A DNA stretch of 20,000 nt, from assembly GCA_010015585.1 (NCBI GenBank), contig ML975155.1; one strand, written 5' to 3'. The number at the start of each line of letters is the position of its first letter. The first letter of the stretch is position 1. Below, one piece after another: positions 3,408-20,000 of the stretch. The stretch comes from Eremomyces bilateralis CBS 781.70. Its lineage: Eukaryota. The notes beneath the pieces were generated by a model. That model was not told where the DNA came from and did no database searches. It saw only the letters and a program-made list of their open reading frames with translations. The translations under genes and the position numbers were made by a program.

Positions 3408-6032
3408 TCAATTCCATCCCAAGCTGTTTTCGCTCATGACCGGCGCGCTGATCTGGGTCGTACGAATGCTCCGGCCCTGGCTACTTCCGCTCTGGCCTGC
3501 GGAACTGCCAGACAGGCCGCTTCGGTCGGAGTATCGGCTCTGGCGTCCGCTCATTCCGGGGGTGACTCTGTCGTGGCCTGCACCCGTCATCCATGGTCCG
3601 CCCTCCTGGCTACCGCTTTGAACGGAGCTGGTTCGCTGGTGCCGTCGTGCCTTGCGTTGCTTGTACCGCCGTGCGACGAGGACCATGGCACCTCCGTACA
3701 GCACTGCGCCGACTGCCGCTGACACACCAACGGCCACGGAGGTGGATTTTACTGGAGACGAGGACGATGCATCGCCCCCAAACGCGGAACCGCCATCGGC
3801 TTTGGTGGGCGACGATGCCGATGGATTGTTAGGCCCCGTGCCCCTGTTATCGTCCAAGAGTTGGCCAGGTAGGAGAGGAATGGACGGGTTGATCAAGCCC
3901 ATTAACGTTCGCGCCGATTCGTCCGGGTTTCCGTACAATTGGCTGACGGGCGAAAGCAGGTCTGCACCGAGCTGGCTCACCTTGTCGGACGCAACGTAAA
4001 AGAGGGCAAGCGTGGTGATGTATTGAAGATCTTCGGTCGTGTCATAGGGTTGCAACGCGTAGAAAACCACCTGCTCCCGTGGAATTTTCAGGCCAAAGGC
4101 GATACCTTCGGGAAGGAAGCGGTAAATTTGGCGTCTGCTAACTGAGCTCGACGACACGAATGGGAAATTGAGCGGATAACTGAAACCAACTTGAACAAGA
4201 GTCGAATCCTTCGGGGCTTCTGGCGTGCCTCCAGGCGGCTTGATGAGTTTTGGCATGGTAGACGGGATGCCCGTCTCGACCGCAGTCAGTGTAACCGTGT
4301 TCGACGTCGGTTCGGCAACGATGCTGCTCGGAACAAATTGCGTGCTGAGCGTATCGGACCCGGTGGGGATGACGCTAAATACGGGCGCCTCGCTTAACGT
4401 GGTTGGTCCGGGAACCACAGTTGACGGGGTCTCGATTTGAGATGTCGCAGAACTGGTAGCGGATAGGGAAGGGTCCACGATACCACTAACCGACGATGAG
4501 CTCACTGGTAGGGAGCTAGAAGGTGATTCCGATAATGAAATGGGTCCCGTTGGATCAGATACTGGAATAGTAGAGTTGCTGATAGGCAGGTCGGTCGGAA
4601 GCGTACTTGAGGTGCTTTCCAAGGTCGGAGTGCTGACAGGTGGTGCCGTCGGGTTCGCGATAAATGAGCTCTCTGTCGAGTTATCTGGCGTCGACGTGGG
4701 AAAGGCCGGATCCGAGGTTTCCGGGGGGACCTCAGATACAATTGACGAGGCCTCCGATGCAATAGAGGACAGGATCAATGACAGATCTTGGGTCGGGGCC
4801 ACAGGGTCCGTGGGATTCGGCGAGGAACTGATGCCTGAAAATTCGGACGCGGCTGAGGACAAGATGCTAGAGATGTCCTCACTAAGAGACTCTGAGGGCG
4901 TCGGAGAGCTCGTCAAATCGCCCAACGCACTGGACGCTTCGGACGCGATTGAAGAGATAACATCTCCTGGGTCGGGTGGTGAAGTGGTCTCCGGTGGAGC
5001 TGATGAAGTGGGAATCGAGTCTGGTGGGAAGGATTCAGACCCGGACGGAAGTGCTTCAATCGAGCTGGAAGCACCGGTTCCCAGCGCGCCAGTTGGGAAG
5101 ACTCCTCCTGTTAGAGATCCGATGATCCCATCCAAGAAATCACCCGATGAGGAGGTGGGAGTAGCGAGATCCGATGGCTCAGAAGCTGAAGTCGATATGA
5201 CCGAATCCGACGCCGAGCTGATGACTGTGGAGAGCCCTACAATGATGCCAGTGGGTGACTCTGACGTCGAAGGTGCAGTTTCGGATGACGGGTCCGGTGT
5301 ACTTGATGGTTGCAAGACCGTCTCGGGTGTTCCACCGGTGCTGGATTCAAAGAAAGCACCGCCGAAGGGGACCGATAAACTTGGAAGTATGATACTCGAC
5401 GGAACTCCCCCGCCGCTGCTCGGGTCGCTCTCCGAATTAGATAATGAGCTTTCTAGAGATGGTGTCGGTAGGAGGGTGGGAAGGGAGAGTCCATTCGATC
5501 CGATTCCAATACCTAGGTCTAGAATGGGGGAGGTCGGCGTCTCGGAAGTCTCCGGCACCACCGGCGCGGTCCCTGACTCTGCGACACCACTTGGGGGAAG
5601 GATACCATCGGTAGTCCCCGACTCTGCGGAACCGCTTGGGAGAAGGATACCATCGGCGGTCCCTGACTCTGCGGCGCCACTTGGGGGCAGGATACCTTCG
5701 GCGGTCGGAGTGGCCATCGGATCGAATACGAAGACACTTGTCGAACTCACTACGATAGTCGTGACAGCATCCGAAGATGTTGTCTCCTCCGTCAAGTCGC
5801 TTGCGATGTTACTGATCAGACCCGAGAAGTCTGACTCCTGGGCGTCTGGTACAGGTAGCAATGCACTCAAATTGCCGATCTGTCTCTTGACAACCCGGGG
5901 AAAATAGTACCGCGGACGGTCGGGGTCTCTGGTATTGGGAGGGGCCGGTGCGGCTTCGGCGTATGTTAATAGTGGCCCGCAGAATGAGACCATGGCCATA
6001 GAGGCCGCTAGAAATCCTCGAGACTGCACCAT
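3408..6032 (-). CDS. MSB2: Signalling mucin Msb2/Hkr1 family, single coding exon, about 874 aa
   Basis: First true ATG is at 6032 (the ORF track start at 6056 is TTG). The protein has a signal-peptide-like N-terminus, a PRYYFPRVVKR dibasic site, a long Ser/Thr/Pro-rich mucin region, a conserved juxtamembrane domain (LVQVGFSYPLNFPFV...QIYRFLPEGI...LQPYDT), one TM helix (VAVGVSAAVGAVLYGGAMVLVA) followed by RRYK, and the Msb2-typical C-terminus ISAPVMSENSLGWN. Confidence 0.93.
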   Translation of the reverse strand: MVQSRGFLAASMAMVSFCGPLLTYAEAAPAPPNTRDPDRPRYYFPRVVKRQIGNLSALLPVPDAQESDFSGLISNIASDLTEETTSSDAVTTIVVSSTSVFVFDPMATPTAEGILPPSGAAESGTADGILLPSGSAESGTTDGILPPSGVAESGTAPVVPETSETPTSPILDLGIGIGSNGLSLPTLLPTPSLESSLSNSESDPSSGGGVPSSIILPSLSVPFGGAFFESSTGGTPETVLQPSSTPDPSSETAPSTSESPTGIIVGLSTVISSASDSVISTSASEPSDLATPTSSSGDFLDGIIGSLTGGVFPTGALGTGASSSIEALPSGSESFPPDSIPTSSAPPETTSPPDPGDVISSIASEASSALGDLTSSPTPSESLSEDISSILSSAASEFSGISSSPNPTDPVAPTQDLSLILSSIASEASSIVSEVPPETSDPAFPTSTPDNSTESSFIANPTAPPVSTPTLESTSSTLPTDLPISNSTIPVSDPTGPISLSESPSSSLPVSSSSVSGIVDPSLSATSSATSQIETPSTVVPGPTTLSEAPVFSVIPTGSDTLSTQFVPSSIVAEPTSNTVTLTAVETGIPSTMPKLIKPPGGTPEAPKDSTLVQVGFSYPLNFPFVSSSSVSRRQIYRFLPEGIAFGLKIPREQVVFYALQPYDTTEDLQYITTLALFYVASDKVSQLGADLLSPVSQLYGNPDESARTLMGLINPSIPLLPGQLLDDNRGTGPNNPSASSPTKADGGSAFGGDASSSSPVKSTSVAVGVSAAVGAVLYGGAMVLVARRYKQRKARRHQRTSSVQSGSQEGGPWMTGAGHDRVTPGMSGRQSRYSDRSGLSGSSAGQSGSSQGRSIRTTQISAPVMSENSLGWN
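5566..5706. repeat. 45-bp coding tandem repeat, 3 copies plus a fragment, inside MSB2 (15-aa unit like TADGILPPSGAAESG)
   Basis: Units 5566-5610, 5611-5655 and 5656-5700 resemble GCGGTCCCTGACTCTGCG..CCACTTGGGGG.AGGATACC.TCG. Confidence 0.95.
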
Positions 6033-6101
6033 CGTGAAATCAATACGTCCGAACAAGATGCAATGGAAATGATGCCGCTGGAAAAGATGTATATGGAACG
6101 A

Positions 6102-13622: not shown

Positions 13623-14703
13623 TCAAGCCTTGCCATTTGTAGAATTCGTTTTCCGCTGATTTACACTCTGAAGAGCCTGAAGATTAAGACTAGAGAGCTT
13701 TGTGCTGCTTTCCGAAAATATGCCCTTGAGGAAATCGATGGTATCGCATGTGTTGCCGTACCCGTTGTAGTGTGTGCTCCTTTTGCACATAGAGGGTTTA
13801 GTAAACTCGTTAGTGATCTTGAATAACCCGTCATATGAAATGCCTTCGTAACCCTGTTCTCGCGATGTAAAACTGCCTTCTACGTGCCCTCTAAATGTTG
13901 GGAGAACTCGCAGCTCGGTTAACTGCCTGGCTAGTTGACCAAGCATATGAAGTCGACAGTCCAGCGTGGGACAAATCTCTGGTCGGCAGAAAGATGGGCG
14001 AGGGAATTGGGAATCAAATTGATCGGAAGCCAATCGATCGAAAGCCATTTCGAATCGCTCTATCACTTTGGATACAATTTTCTTTCTTCGCTGATCTATC
14101 GCATCTAAGAATGGGTCAGAGCATTGCTTGTAGTCGTGACGCGTTTGGCATACCTGTGACGACTTGAGGGGTTGGGTATTCTCCTGGATCGACTGCGTTT
14201 TCTGCCTTACGAACCCAGTTCTTTGAAACCAGACCAAAAATGGCTGAATTAGGAAAAATCCAAGAGAGGAAGAGCCACTCGGCACTCATTTCGCCTCCTT
14301 CAAGTGCAGGTTCATCGCATTTGAACGCGTCATCCACCCATCGCTCGGCCTGATATTCAATTACTTCTAGGCACTCGTAGTAATCGACCAATTTTCCAAC
14401 CTGGAGCAGCTCCGCCTTCGGCAACGACTTGGGCACTTTTCGAAATCGGCCGTGCATTGCATTCAAAATGATCGAGTAACTGGTTGGTCCACATGAAGGA
14501 AGGGCACTGACATCCAAGCTTCCAGACTTTACGGACTCTGACTCTTTCCAAGGGCCAGAAAACATGCGATCGAAATAGGGAGAAGCCACAGATAAATGAC
14601 GTGAGGAGGCGAGGAACGACACAAGTTTGATCTCTTCTTCTGGGAAGGCAATATTAAGGGTCAGATCCCCCTTTGGATCGAGGGTTTGAAAGTTTGAAGT
14701 CAT
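13623..14703 (-). CDS. Fungal BTB/POZ-domain protein, about 343 aa; exons 14703-14154 and 14104-13623
   Basis: N-terminal LDPKGDLTL...FLASSRHLSVASPYFDRMFSGPWKES...IILNAMHG...LVDYYEC is the typical fungal BTB signature. A 49-nt intron (GTATGC...CTGAC...TAG, 14153-14105) joins the ORF-track frames 14116..14703 and 13623..14285 in phase. Confidence 0.88.
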
Positions 14704-15356
14704 AATTGGAGGCCCAAGAAGGGGACGATAGCGTTGGGTGAGGAAACCCTGTGGCCGATATCCCCGTGGTAGGTAGACTGGTAATTGTTCCTATCCAGTA
14801 TGAGGGCCCCATTTCATTGATATGTATCATAATGACTTACCAAAGAAACACGATTGACAACAAGGAGTATTGAACGTAACTGTCAACCCGATGATCTTAA
14901 GTTGCCGCAATGCGCATGTGTTACAGGTACTGGTACTTAGATATATCTAACTACTTCAGATCACTTTCTGTTTACAACAGCAGTTGGAGCAGAGGGACAT
15001 AGAGGTTGAAAGAAGAAAAGTGGGCCAGCCGGGGTTCACACATCGGTAGAAATTCGGTTCAGTTCCTGAGCATCATGGGCTTCGGAGCGGAGACAACACC
15101 GCACCGGACTTTATTAGTGGAGTAAGGGTCAGTGCTAGTATCAATAACATCACGTTGCGATGCGTCGAAAAAGCCTGGAATGTTCAGCAGCAACGGACTG
15201 TCATTCTCATTCTCGATCCAGATTATATAGATTTGTCCTGTATCGATGAGCAAGGCGGCTTCGCTGGAGCGACAGCGCCAAGCCGTGCATGATGATTTGT
15301 TATAACCCTAGTTCCCCACATGAGCCTCGCAGAGAGACCTGACGGTCGTATGAATG

Positions 15357-15377: not shown

Positions 15378-16642
15378 TCATATATGTCCCTGAATAGATT
15401 TTGGCTCATACAACTCCTCTAAGTACTTCGTCTCTTCTTCAGTTAGTGTTTTCCCTGTCGCTGCAACTGCGTCATCAATCCTCTCCAAGCTACTGAACCC
15501 AATAATTGGGCTCGCCACCTTCGCATTCGTCCATGCTAGTGTCACCTGTGTCATAGTCCATCCCTTCTTCTGCGCCAACTCCTGTACTCTCTTAATCGTT
15601 TCCTTATCTGCCTCTGTTGACCAATTCGCAAAGTTCTGCGGTCCTGAACTCCTGTCTGTCTTCCCAGACTCTTCCAGCGGGCGAGCAAGCCATCCACGAG
15701 CAAGAGGCGCCCACGGAATTAGACCAACGCCCGTCTCATTGCAATATCGGTTCATCTCTCGTTCTTCTTCGCGATAGAGAAGGCTATAGTGGTTCTGCAT
15801 TGACACAAACTTTGTCCATCCGTTCTTCTCCGCGGCAAATTGCATCAAGGCGAATTGATAGGTCCACATGGAGGATGCACCGATATAGTGCACTTTTCCG
15901 GACTTCACCAGATCATGCAACGCTTCTATAGTCTCCTCGATCGGGGTGTTTTGGTCGAAGCGGTGGATTTGCAGCAGGTCAATGTAATCGGTTTGCAGTC
16001 GCGCCAAAGAATTATTGACGGCTTGGAATATCGCTTTGCGTGACAATCCTCCTTGATTGACATAGTCTTTCGATTTCGCAATCTGAGGACCCACATTGAC
16101 CGTCCGGAAAGCGGGATCCTCGGAGACATAGCCATAACATTTGGTCAGGATAACAAGCTTATGGCGCGGAATTTTGTATTTCTTGATGGCGTTGCCGATA
16201 ACTTTCTCACTGATGCCATTGCTGTAGGAGTTGGCTGTAGACAGTAAGTACGATGGAGAGTAAGATGGATCAGGAACCTGGTACCTGTGTCCCAAGTGTT
16301 GAGGCCGACATCGTAGGCATGTTTCAGGAGTGGGAGAGCCTGAGCGTCCGACGTTAGTCGATGGATACCTCAGAGAATTTAAATCAATTTCTTCGAGATA
16401 TTCTGCTAAGTAGGCGTACTTTATCCTCATCCTTTACCCAGTTCAACCTGCCATTGGTTAATTTTATTCCTGTCGAGATATTCGTTCGTCTAAGGGTCGT
16501 ACCAGTTGGAGGTACCAAAGCTCATGGCGCCCAGGATGGGGACCGACACTCGTAAGCCACTCTTTCCCAGTCTTCGATACTCCACCTTCGTCTCCTCCAC
16601 GGAGGTATTGAATCTTTTAAGAGCTTCCTCAACGGACGACAT
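15378..16642 (-). CDS. Aldo-keto reductase (YajO / aryl-alcohol dehydrogenase-like subfamily), about 359 aa; exons 16642-16503, 16447-16420, 16339-16285, 16234-15378
   Basis: Spliced protein contains [23 protein letters not shown]...[17 protein letters not shown]...LTKCY...[19 protein letters not shown]...[14 protein letters not shown]...[14 protein letters not shown], with the Asp/Tyr/Lys/His catalytic tetrad. Three GT-AG introns (55, 80 and 50 nt) restore the frame; total 1080 nt. Confidence 0.93.
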
Positions 16643-17490
16643 TGTGGCAGTAATCTCAGATAAATTTAAAAATTGCTCTCGGGTTGATGCTACCAAGGGA
16701 CGCTCAAAAGGGGTGGTAAAAGAATCAAAGGTCCTCAGACAACCGAAGGAAAATCTCGTGCTTAAATAGCTTCAACTTGACACTCGAAAAGGAAATGATC
16801 TAAAGGGTCCGATATGATCGCGCAATATCGCGTTTCTACTAGGGTAGCTATGTTTATATGTATCTTCTAGTATAAATGCGGATAGGAATAATTTCTGGGG
16901 TTTCATATCCGTACTACGCATACATACATTCGCCGGAATGGCCCCCCTATACATCAAATTGCTATTACGGAGTAAAGTTTCTTAATAAGACACGTTTCGA
17001 TCCAACAGAGAGGATGGTTGATATCCAATAGTTATCAACTCCTAACTAGCTGAACGATGACGAGGTGTTGTAGGGTATGTACGGATAAGATGTTATTAAG
17101 GAAGCAAAGGCACTGGTTGAAGGGTAGATTGCCTCTAGGCTATGCAGGATATTGGTTATGAACAGAAGAAGAATATACATAATAGTTACCTCCTTTAAAC
17201 AACCTGACGGCAGATTGACCTCCGTTTTGGGCGGTTTGTGACGCCGTTTTTACTGTAATTTGAGGACCTGTGACTGCCTCTTTGAGACTAGCGTGCCAGT
17301 TCGGGATTAGTGCTCTTTTCCGTTTTCAACCTTCCCAAAACTTTCAAACATAAATACCTCTATTATCCCCCCCTCTCGTAAACCCGCTCTCCTCTATCTT
17401 TTCCCATTCACAAATTCATTTCCTGTCCGCCTTCCTTGCCTCCCCTCTTCGTTTCCGTCGGCCCACCAGCCCACTTTCACCCCTGTGACT

Positions 17491-17620
17491 ATGCCTGCCC
17501 GCGTGAGGAGTGTTGACGATCCACCAGACATTTTCTCGCGGCGGCCACCCCGCCTACCTCCTTCATTCGATTCATGCGACTTGACTGTTCCCCCCTCTCA
17601 AAGGCCCCTCCATTCCAATG
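17491..17620 (+). CDS. Candidate first coding exon of the + strand microexon gene (MPARVRSVDDPPDIFSRRPPRLPPSFDSCDLTVPPSQRPLHSN), phase-1 end
   Basis: Lies downstream of a pyrimidine-rich promoter-like tract (about 17330-17490). The ATG has A at -3, runs 43 codons open and ends at a canonical GTGAGT donor (17621) with a stop just inside the putative intron. No homology recognised. Confidence 0.3.
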
Positions 17621-18549
17621 GTGAGTAATTCTGCCCCTTGTCTCGCTCATCCTGTCCGCCTGGGCGAAACGCCCTCGTTTCGTTACTAGCGGTGCCCCAA
17701 AACCATTAGGGCAGTAAAGGGAGAGTCACTATCTCGCGCACGAAGGCGCTGGGATATTTCTTCTCTCGGTCTCTTTAGTTTAGATTAATGGAACTTGGTG
17801 ATCGCAGACCTTGCACATCCAGATCGTGTCAAAATGTACTCGAATCATTTATAGAAGCATTACGAAAGGCTGTCTTTTCATAGGTGTTCGTGTCGCAAGA
17901 TGCCCCTCTTCGTTTCTACTACCACGCAGCATTCTTCTTCTGCCCATTACCCCCAGGCTAAGCCTATTTAGGACTGCCCACTCATTTCCTATATTTACAT
18001 ATCTTCAACGGTTTAGCTAGAGATCTCTTTTCGGGACACAATGGGAATCGTTAATAATATCAACATGCGTTGTGTCTACACAGTAACTGAGCTTAAGCAG
18101 CGAACTTGCTTAATCATCACCCCCGCGTAATGCGACAGTTTGGAGGTTGGCTTTAGTGCGGGGTTCACGGAACGCTAATACGCGATTCGCTGCTCAACGG
18201 AACTCAATTTAATAAAGTGAGGCCGAAGAATCAGCAGGCAGCTGGTGTCGTTGACCAATGAGTCAACGACATGTCGACTTTGCAGGATTCTGGTCAAAGA
18301 ACCGGTTATGACCTTGAAATAAAATGTGAAGCTCCCCTCTCGTCTGTTGTTACAGAAGAACACCTTAGATTTACTATGCACTTCACTTGCAACGGCATAC
18401 TACGCATTCAGAATAACGTGAAAAATGTCTCTGGCTTGGATTCATGACGGGTTTAAGGTACTTTTTAGTTCATCTGGCCTTCCTAAATCGATGTTAAAGG
18501 AAAGTAAAGAAACGATAAATCGCTAACTCTGTTCATCTCACTGGTTTAG

Positions 18550-19969
18550 CACGTAAGCCAACCTGTCTAAGATGGACCAGATGCTATGACAGCTAACCAT
18601 GGTCTTATTTATTGGTATAGGAAGTAAGTCGACCTTTCTAAGATAGACGGGATATTATGACGGCTGACCGTGGTCTTATTTATTGGTATAGATAGTAAGT
18701 CGACTTCTCTAAGATAGACGAGATACTATGTCAGCTGACCGTGGTCTTATTTACTGGTATAGCGGGTAAGTCGGCTTCTCTAAGATGGATGAGATGCTAT
18801 GACGGCTGACCGTGGTCTTATTTATTGGGATAGGAAGTAAGTCGGCTTCTAAGATAAACGAGATATTATGACGGCTGACCGTGGTCTTATTTATTGGTAT
18901 AGATAGTAAGTCGACTCCTTTAAGATAGACGAGATATTATGACGGCTGACCATGGTCTTATTTATTGGTATAGTGGGTAAGTCGACTTCTTTAAGATAGA
19001 CGAGATACTATGACGGCTGACCGTGGTCTTATTTACTGGTATAGATAGTAAGTCGATTTCTCTAAGATAGGTAAGATATTATGACGGCTAACCGTAGTCT
19101 TATTTATTGGTATAGCGGGTAAGTCGACTTCTCTAAGATAGAGGAAATATTATGACGGCTAACTGTGGTCTTATCTACTGGTATAGGAAGTAAGTCGACT
19201 TCTTAAGATAGACGAGATATTATGACGGCTGACCATGGTCTTATTTATTGCTATAGGCAGTAAGTCGACTTCTCTAAGATAGACGAGATATTTTGACGGC
19301 TGACTACGGTCTTATTTATTGGTATAGGAAGTAAGTCGACTTCTCTAAGATAGACTGGATATTTTAACGGCTAACCGTGGTCTTATTTATTGGTATAGAT
19401 AGTAAGTCGACTTCTCTAAGATGGATGAGATGCTATGACGGCTGACCGTGGTCTTATCTACTGGTATAGGCGGTAAGTCGACTTCTCTAAGATAGACGAG
19501 ATATTATGACGGCTAACCATGGTCTTGTTTATTGGTATAGGAAGTAAGTCGACTTCTCTAAGATAGATAAGATATTATGACGGCTGACCATAGTCTTATT
19601 TATTGCTATAGGCAGTAAGTCGACTTCTCTAAGATAGACGAGATGCTGTGATGGCTGACCGTGGTCTTATTTATTGGTATAGATAGTAAGTCCCCTTCTT
19701 TAAGATAGACGAGGTACTATGACGGCTGACCGTGGTCTTATTTATTGGTATAGCGGGTAAGTCGACTTCTCTAAGATAGACGAAATATTATGACGGCTGA
19801 CCGTGGTCTTATTTATCGGTATAGCGGGTAAGTCGACTTCTCTAAGATAGACGAGATATTGTGTCGGCTGACCGTGGTCTTATTTATTGGTATAGGAAGT
19901 AAGTCAACTTCTCTAAGATTAATAAGATATTATGACGGCTAACCGTAGTCTTATCTATTGGTATAGGAA
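18550..19969 (+). CDS. Putative coding segment made of 21 consecutive 3-nt microexons (partial gene, product unknown)
   Basis: Spacers in order: CAC GAA ATA CGG GAA ATA TGG ATA CGG GAA GCA GAA ATA GCG GAA GCA ATA CGG CGG GAA GAA. Each is flanked by an upstream TAG and a downstream GTAAG(T/C), every intervening unit has CTAAC or CTGAC, and no spacer is a stop codon. No transcript evidence is available. Confidence 0.65.
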
Positions 19970-20000
19970 GTAAGTCGACTTCTCTAAGATAGACGAGATA
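18553..20000 (+). repeat. Tandem array with a 71-bp period (20 full units plus a partial one, continuing past the window); each unit is a 68-nt intron-like sequence plus a variable 3-nt spacer
   Basis: Consensus GTAAGTCGACTTCTCTAAGATAGACGAGATATTATGACGGCTGACCGTGGTCTTATTTATTGGTATAG followed by NNN. Unit starts: 18553, 18624, 18695, 18766, 18837, 18906, 18977, 19048, 19119, 19190, 19260, 19331, 19402, 19473, 19544, 19615, 19686, 19757, 19828, 19899, 19970. Confidence 0.98.

Follow-up and report, generated by a model that had tools for sequence, protein, structure and literature searches.

A tandem array of intron-like units separated by codon-sized spacers in Eremomyces bilateralis CBS 781.70

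Introduction

The sequence examined in this study is a 20,000-nt stretch of contig ML975155.1 from the fungus Eremomyces bilateralis CBS 781.70, referred to here as the window, which ends inside a tandem array of intron-like units. Each cassette of this array consists of a 68-nt intron-like stretch with GTAAGT at its 5′ end, a CTRAC motif in its interior and TAG at its 3′ end, followed by exactly 3 nt. The original prediction for this array, made from the letters of the window, was that the introns are homogenised, that the spacers between them are hypervariable and that insertions and deletions are confined to the introns; it suggested constraint on the splice signals and on the spacer length, together with maintained diversity in the encoded residue. 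The analysis presented here points to the array probably being the 5′ part of a fungal recognition-type gene, in which the spacers form a coding array of one-codon exons.

Structure of the array

Tandem Repeats Finder places one array at 18566–20000 (period 71, 20.3 copies, 86% matches, score 2044). When the array is cut at each GTAAG, 20 complete units are obtained at 18553–19969, together with a partial 21st. Eighteen of the 20 units are 71 nt in length, one is 69 nt (18837–18905) and one is 70 nt (19190–19259), and both deletions fall within the TTCTCT tract in alignment columns 12–15. Every one of the 20 spacers measures 3 nt, and segmentation by a profile hidden Markov model (HMM) agrees. 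The spacers read, in order, GAA ATA CGG GAA ATA TGG ATA CGG GAA GCA in the first half of the array and GAA ATA GCG GAA GCA ATA CGG CGG GAA GAA in the second. Outside the array, an nhmmer search (E up to 10) of the remaining 18.5 kb of the window found no copy of the unit.

The splice signals of the units are those of U2-type introns. All 21 unit starts begin with GT, all 20 complete units end with AG and all 20 contain CTRAC. At the 5′ splice site GTAAG is invariant (20/20) and position 6 is T in 19 of the 20 units, unit 1 being the sole unit with GTAAGC. The branch site, CT.AC, is likewise invariant apart from its middle base, which is G in 14 units and A in six, and it lies 24 nt ahead of an invariant ATAG. 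The intron-like units measure 66–68 nt, which falls among the lengths of the introns given by RNA joints in the same window (49, 50, 55, 80 and 92 nt). Furthermore, retention of a unit would bring a stop into frame, TAA at the sixth codon, for every one of the 20 units.

The features at this locus are as follows; X1 and X3 are sequencing runs, described under RNA evidence.

18348–18424, plus strand: 5′ leader of the transcript, from X3 contigs over the bin 18348–18538, its start being known only to that bin
18425–18457, plus strand: exon 1, 33 nt (ATG and ten codons), from the sequence, with the exon end fixed by an RNA joint
18458–18549, plus strand: intron 1, 92 nt (GTACTT / GCTAAC / TTTAG), from an RNA joint in one X3 contig; it is outside the repeat family
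18550–18552, plus strand: putative first one-codon exon, CAC, between intron 1 and unit 1, from the sequence; in frame with ATG 18425
18553–19969, plus strand: 20 complete cassettes, each a 66–68-nt intron-like unit and a 3-nt putative exon, from repeat finding, alignment and HMM
18837–18902, plus strand: variant unit of 66 nt, lacking 2 nt of the TTCTCT tract, from the alignment
19190–19256, plus strand: variant unit of 67 nt, lacking 1 nt of the TTCTCT tract, from the alignment
19757–19827, plus strand: representative cassette, with GTAAGT at 19757–19762, CTGAC at 19797–19801, TAG at 19822–19824 and the codon CGG at 19825–19827
19970–20000, plus strand: start of the 21st unit, which runs off the window, from the sequence and HMM search

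An in-frame TGA (18419–18421) stands just upstream of ATG 18425, and the base at position −3 is A. The run of 20 of 20 3-nt spacers behind an RNA-supported upstream exon would fit a micro-exon architecture, whose downstream exon would lie past the end of the window. An upstream open reading frame (ORF) of 23 codons, from ATG 18376 to TGA 18445–18447, overlaps the start codon at 18425 in another frame. By eye, the 3′ part of intron 1 at 18520–18549 (GCTAAC ... TGGTTTAG) resembles unit columns 40–68 (GCTGAC ... TGGTATAG), and the array may have been born from intron 1 and the codon behind it.

Variation among the units

Variation is distributed very unevenly over the cassette. In the alignment of the 20 units, columns 1–5 (GTAAG), 40–42 and 44–45 (CT.AC) and 65–68 (ATAG) are invariant, with zero entropy, and the entropy maxima lie in spacer columns 69 (1.68 bits) and 70 (1.94 bits), compared with 1.15 bits for the top intron column. 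The pairwise diversity per site is 0.630 in the spacer versus 0.119 in the intron and 0.135 in its non-signal columns, and the spacer is the most variable among all 71 three-column windows. Among the 14 splice-signal columns only two vary, whereas 32 of the remaining 54 intron columns do (Fisher P 0.0055). Four CpG pairs behave as mutational hot spots, and the protection of the signal columns holds at P 0.013 when the CpG columns are removed. These two results, the protected signal columns and the spacer as top window, do not fit a neutral minisatellite with even variation. The overall pattern described in the original prediction is thus real: the signal columns are the least variable and the triplet columns the most, the proposed entropy profile is recovered with its peak in the first two triplet columns, and a constraint on the splice signals is apparent.

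The differences of the introns from their consensus are mainly transitions, as had been stated, with 76 transitions, 14 transversions and three gap cells among the 93 differing cells of 1360. The description of the introns as homogenised holds in so far as half of their columns (34 of 68) are without any variation, but a mean pairwise difference of 11.9% indicates moderate rather than strong homogenisation. Similarly, the spacers are indeed the most variable columns, but their variability is limited to six triplet types in three deep classes, namely GAA with GCA and GCG, ATA, and CGG with TGG. GCA and GCG are one- and two-step derivatives of GAA, and change within the classes affects five of 60 spacer sites, which is about the same as the intron value of 93 of 1360. 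Both deletions do lie in introns, but this observation has no statistical weight because there are only two of them and 0.08 would be expected in the spacer.

The codon used for each residue is nearly constant (GAA in 7/7, ATA in 5/5 and CGG in 4/4 cases), and the cassettes are therefore copies by descent that arose by duplication of whole cassettes. This is a tandem segmental duplication of an intron, with the 11.9% mean pairwise difference given above and with the spacer copied along. No higher-order period was found among the 20 units: the intron differences at lags 1 to 9 are all 7.5–8.6, with no three-unit period. In addition, units with the same triplet do not have closer flanking introns, either upstream (8.55 versus 7.97) or downstream (8.03 versus 7.52). 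Exchange between units has therefore broken up the association of intron variants with codons. The spacers show diversity without hypermutation, and the duplicated cassettes were later shuffled. A puzzle is that three unrelated triplets persist within units that are otherwise alike. Unequal exchange would be expected to make a 3-nt spacer uniform together with the intron ends on either side.

RNA evidence

None of the runs is recorded as RNA; X1 is a DNA run, and X3 was taken as RNA from its splice joints. Contigs of X3 contain the joints 14104>14154, 16234>16285, 16338>16419 and 16445>16501, which have CT..AC ends as expected of minus-strand introns and are absent from X1; X3 therefore holds spliced RNA. 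One X3 contig (depth 294.9, side 24) joins 18455>18548 with 92 nt skipped. Read two places rightward, this joint has GT..AG ends and corresponds exactly to intron 1 (18458–18549) on the plus strand, and therefore the gene is transcribed on the plus strand and its first intron is used. Once intron 1 is removed, the CAC triplet continues the frame of exon 1 from ATG 18425.

Run X3 has no cover in 18157–18347. The ratio of the depth of two units to that of the leader is ∼66 in X1 (17427.7 versus 262.2) and 1.7 in X3 (666.4 versus 389.8). These ratios would fit many more units in DNA and few in RNA; they are not used as evidence, and contig depths are not valid for ranking the parts of a gene or for giving copy numbers.

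Related arrays in metagenome contigs

The exact unit pattern of the window had no match in metagenome contigs. A generic pattern of three GTAAGT...TAG units, with 40–70 nt inside and 3 nt between each pair, matched at least 121 stretches, mostly simple repeats with a 4-nt period and without branch sites. Chains were retained if they had at least four units and a branch motif and were not of low complexity, which left 49 of 502 parsed chains and, among the matches listed, 39 non-redundant chains in 30 loci including the window (29 further loci). Because the pattern fixes a 3-nt gap in three adjacent units, the counts describe the arrays found and not the absence of other exon sizes. Arrays built like that of the window are a frequent feature of eukaryotic metagenome contigs, and some have homologous units.

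Among the triplets of these 39 chains, 47 of the 64 possible types occur. Stop triplets number two of 425, versus 22.6 expected from position-specific base frequencies (P 2.4e-8), and when each distinct triplet is counted once per chain they number two of 228 versus 12.9 expected (P 1.9e-4). TAA and TGA never occur, and TAT (13), TGG (12) and TTG (21) are frequent. At the third triplet position C is found in only 19 of the 425, versus T in 203 and A in 122. A C at this position would create a CpG where the triplet meets the following GT.

Thirteen arrays were segmented by a profile HMM built for each array and blind to splice sites. Of the 377 gaps between full-length units, 355 measure 3 nt and none measures 6 or 9 nt. 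Stop triplets occur in two of these 355, both in the array of locus L056; without L056 there are none among 334, versus 16.1 expected (P 7e-8). In each of the 13 arrays diversity is lower in the signal columns than elsewhere in the intron, and in 11 of them no three-column intron window is as diverse as the triplet. L056 acts as a natural control: GT is present at 17 of 23 unit starts, the array contains the only two stop triplets, and the region resembling a HET domain behind it is riddled with stops. Arrays with a single repeated triplet also exist (L005, GGA in 44/44; L051, CAG in 5/5; L113, CCT in 4/5) and have the appearance of plain expansion.

The reading of the triplets as codons is thus upheld by the relatives, through their avoidance of stops and the in-frame flanking exons described below. 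The proposed constraint on spacer length draws its support from the same source, namely the 3-nt gap in 355 of 377 cases and the lack of 6- or 9-nt gaps. Spacers of a length other than a multiple of three and stop codons, which would have spoken against the prediction if common, are not seen in the 20 complete window units, where every spacer is 3 nt and no triplet is a stop.

Further arrays were noted. At L005:18–3300 (plus strand), 44 chained units all have GGA and the branch motif is present in two of the 44; this array is either a plain expansion or a poly-glycine stretch. L078 (67 units) and L053 have units of an unrelated family, which end in CTGACAG and show the same one-codon spacing; the last exons of the two are short and homologous and contain a stop, and a copia-type gag ORF lies ∼1.1 kb downstream of L053.

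Unit homology and gene context

Consensus units were compared after removal of GTAAGT and TAG, with z scores calculated against shuffles. The window consensus is 71% identical to that of L112 (z 8.3), 66% to those of L056 (z 6.4) and L097 (z 5.4), 62% to that of L105 (z 5.4) and 61% to that of L008 (z 4.2); for five other array consensuses the match to the window does not exceed that of shuffled sequence. A profile HMM built from the window units matches L112 (30 units), L056 (19), L113 (6) and L105 (2). A comparison of the window leader with L105 gave only a 20-nt motif with 15 matches, estimated to be within chance, and the alignment is uninformative.

A HET domain (PF06985) is found in frame 0 in the exon after the last unit at L062 (E 1.5e-25) and L067 (E 1.1e-26), so that in these relatives a HET domain stands behind an N-terminal codon array; the window ends within its own array. 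The L105 array is followed by HET-like sequence, the contig ending within the motif preceding HET. HET-like sequence is also present behind the arrays of L056 (1776–2528) and L058 (1018–1731, minus strand), where it has decayed, with stops at Trp, Gln and Arg codons. Stops at such codons are typical of repeat-induced point mutation. At L023 a 455-residue ankyrin ORF enters the first unit in phase 0, at L061 a NACHT ORF lies upstream of the array, and the array of L008 leads into an ORF of 125 residues for which Pfam gave no match. The last 3′ splice site was chosen to give the longest ORF, and the frame test is therefore lenient; the chosen sites are at a normal distance behind the branch motifs.

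A HET exon would be expected beyond base 20000 of the window because relatives with homologous units, L056 and L105, precede HET sequence. By analogy, the downstream exon most likely encodes a HET-type recognition or cell-death domain.

Remainder of the window

The neighbouring genes are eukaryotic and include coatomer, WD40, AN1 zinc-finger and aldo-keto reductase genes. No tRNA genes were found in the window. A 897-codon open frame at 3408–6101 (minus strand) has no Pfam match and contains a 45-bp tandem repeat of 3.1 copies at 5569–5706.

Directly upstream of the array gene, at 16820–18156, the X1 depth reaches up to 45559, versus ∼250 for single-copy sequence, and this region looks like a dispersed high-copy repeat. 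Run X4, which is labelled as another organism, shares only pieces of 40–60 nt with it (17190–17250 and 17655–17701), which occur in many of the X4 contigs. No Pfam family matched any of seven ORFs, comprising those in or near the upstream repeat (including 17311–17628 and 16490–16771) and four others in the window.

An X1 contig of 444 nt (18110–18553) ends exactly on the first G of unit 1, which suggests a second, diverging sequence in the sample, possibly another allele of the start of the array. At 13785–15200 and 17070–17330 there are two sets of X1 contigs of approximately equal depth, with, for example, 32 differences in 191 nt; these sets may represent two haplotypes or two strains.

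Discussion

The explanation that we consider probable is that the array is the 5′ part of a fungal recognition-type gene and is a coding array of one-codon exons. Each unit would be recognised as a separate intron by intron definition, and the units would be removed one by one, probably in the 5′-to-3′ direction, because the next 5′ splice site lies only 3 nt past the previous 3′ splice site; each step would leave one codon in the message, and a retained unit would end translation at its sixth codon. The array would have grown by duplication of intron-plus-codon cassettes, and unequal exchange between near-identical introns would add, drop and reorder single codons with the frame intact. Selection would act to preserve the splice signals, the spacer length of 3 nt, an open frame and a mixture of codons. 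The predicted product is a fast-changing N-terminal tail of Glu, Ile, Arg, Ala and Trp before a domain beyond the window.

Several observations weigh against this explanation. The sole X3 contig that crosses intron 1 has at least 24 collinear letters on each side and therefore extends at least 21 nt into unit 1, which has not been removed. This retained unit may be a splicing intermediate, a poorly spliced first unit (it is the one with GTAAGC) or the normal state, which the contig does not distinguish. Furthermore, no spliced chain of codons was seen among the X3 contigs in a comparison covering the leader and two units, and the upstream ORF (18376–18447) overlaps ATG 18425. The absence of stops within the window is powerless as a test, since (61/64)^20 = 0.38 and only six triplet types are present, and the synonymous-redundancy test for selection on the residues is uninformative (21 versus 24.6 ± 3.6). 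The relatives were preselected by GTAAGT, TAG and a 3-nt gap, and then by the branch motif, and are known from DNA alone. Finally, HET, NACHT and ankyrin domains have no match within the 20-kb window, and the link of the window gene to HET runs solely through unit homology. The suggestion of maintained residue diversity is accordingly upheld in part: there are six triplet types, their change within classes is about the intron rate and the residue test is uninformative. Overall, the earlier interpretation is partly supported; it was right that the pattern is not that of a neutral minisatellite, as the variation is uneven over the unit, and the diversity in the window array is modest.

Other explanations account for parts of the same evidence. 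The units may be spliced and the frame open while the residues themselves are irrelevant, so that the array is a tolerated self-expanding intron minisatellite or a splicing-dependent brake; in the latter case dozens of introns must leave, any failure leads to a stop and a dangerous cell-death protein is kept low. The in-frame stop produced by every retained unit (20/20), the existence of the single-triplet arrays L005, L051 and L113, the lack of a selection signal on the residues in the uninformative redundancy test and the presence of RNA with unit 1 unspliced are all in keeping with such irrelevance. However, the spacer diversity of 0.63 versus 0.135 in the non-signal intron, with the triplet topping the intron windows in 11 of 13 arrays, speaks against it: an excess of this kind in the face of homogenising exchange calls for selection either on the triplets or on the whole intron. 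A simple brake, moreover, would not need dozens of different codons. We regard irrelevance of the residues as unlikely, although it deserves consideration. Less likely still is that the array is unproductively spliced in this organism, being a transcribed non-coding or dying copy, a leader or a pseudogene remnant. Such a copy would agree with the unit 1 kept in the only RNA contig across intron 1, with the upstream ORF over the start codon, with the dispersed high-copy repeat directly upstream and with the decayed relatives L056 and L058, whose HET regions are full of stops. The window array is nevertheless intact, with GT in 21/21, AG in 20/20 and a branch site in 20/20 units and with no stop triplet; variation is significantly lower in its signal columns, and intron 1 is removed precisely.

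Two further possibilities concern the units as such. They might constitute a small-RNA factory, each intron yielding a snoRNA-like or mirtron-like RNA, and tandem related introns in one transcript are indeed known for SNORD115 and SNORD116 (PMC11608373). Rfam, however, gave no match at the gathering score in the window and none at E up to 1 in 18300–20000. In folding energy the units do not surpass shuffled sequence, the mean z being +0.34 for the 20 window units and −0.47 to +0.85 for five related arrays, and RNAalifold found no consensus pair in 113 related units. Membership among snoRNA or mirtron host arrays was rejected on the Rfam result and the empty alifold consensus. A small-RNA factory would also leave the avoidance of stops and the in-frame flanking exons unexplained, and we consider it very improbable. 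The same low standing is given to repeated insertion of a mobile intron (an introner or introner-like element) at adjacent sites, with the 3 nt left over from the target. Introner-like elements do multiply in fungal genomes (PMC3609843), and related units are present in several metagenome contigs. Against this, the other 18.5 kb of the window contains no copy, and a 68-nt unit is of ordinary intron length and without a stable fold (mean z +0.34), unlike introner-like elements as they are characterised in the cited part of that report (PMC3609843). On these grounds, namely the lack of a dispersed copy in the window, the 68-nt unit and the absence of a stable fold, the units were rejected as introner-like elements. 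In addition, target duplications would, by our reasoning, give equal or doubled spacers and not differing triplets, and the constancy of the codon for each residue points to copying of whole cassettes.

If the array is a coding array of one-codon exons, as we favour, a broader proposal can be put forward, which we hold only tentatively: the HET, NACHT and ankyrin recognition or cell-death genes of fungi would be served by a codon-cassette diversity generator, with the introns acting as recombination handles. Stochastic skipping of exons could then yield many peptide variants from one allele, because each exon is a single codon in phase 0. If real, such a generator would write and vary protein in a manner that has been described in no organism. 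Even short of this, if the triplets are joined in the message, the gene would be the most extreme split coding sequence known to us, with tens of consecutive one-codon exons. It would probe the spacing at which spliceosomes can still work, with 3′ and 5′ splice sites 3 nt apart, and would represent a new route of intron multiplication. It would also provide fungal allorecognition or immune-like genes with a second, unreported source of rapid variation beside their hypervariable repeats. No description of one-codon-exon arrays was found by a full-text search, supplements being outside its reach. Such arrays would have escaped notice because automatic annotators often overlook microexons, as noted in the part of the report cited (10.1101/2024.05.10.593147).

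Comparison with known systems

A number of known systems share features with the window array; the published ones are compared here as far as the cited portions of each source describe them. The exons of micro-exon genes (MEGs) keep the reading frame, so that protein variants can arise. In Schistosoma mansoni these genes contain runs of consecutive exons of 3–81 bp (10.1101/2023.06.21.545858). The window array is like them in having consecutive very short exons, if its triplets are such. However, MEG introns are long (up to 5 kb) and mutually unrelated, whereas in the window array the intron itself is repeated; furthermore, MEG exons are mostly longer than one codon and belong to secreted proteins of an animal parasite, whereas every putative exon of the window array is exactly one codon.

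Same-gene intron duplications (SGD) in fungi have been reported with up to 16 members per species, half of the cases being segmental duplications that carry flanking exon sequence (Collemare et al., 2013, PMC3609843). As in the window array, near-identical introns of ordinary length and folding energy occur in one gene. The window gene differs from the cases in the cited portion in having at least 20 members, with up to 67 in L078, and in that only 3 nt of exon are copied and the triplets differ.

The tandem WD, ANK and TPR repeats of fungal NLR/HET genes are highly conserved internally, are polymorphic in length and are reshuffled by concerted evolution (Dyrka et al., 2014, PMC4986451). The recognition genes in which these repeats are found, of the HET, NACHT and ankyrin classes, are of the kinds that flank the arrays found here. 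Their units are coding, with 33–43 residues and variable sites within the motif, whereas in the present arrays the intron is conserved and one codon is variable; the word 'intron' is absent from the main text of that article.

The host exons of SNORD115 and SNORD116 are non-coding. Their host genes contain tens of tandem introns of common descent in one transcript (PMC11608373). Each of these introns carries a snoRNA, whereas the window units are without an RNA family or fold and the triplets behave as codons. At the ratchet points of recursive splicing, a 3′ splice site stands directly before a 5′ splice site, and an intron is removed stepwise from 5′ to 3′ with no exon left. In the array, by comparison, each step would leave 3 nt in the message.

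That fungal spliceosomes can join 3-nt exons, as is proposed here, is indicated by Coprinopsis cinerea, in which 27 single 3-nt exons in 26 genes have long-read support (10.1101/2024.05.10.593147). In the cited portion of that report, these exons are isolated cases and not arrays of related introns.

The closest known systems, so far as the cited portions describe them, are thus the schistosome MEGs in architecture, the fungal SGD in origin and the NLR/HET repeats in gene context. Tandem intron duplication and micro-exon genes are known kinds, of which the window array, with its putative one-codon exons, would be a variant.

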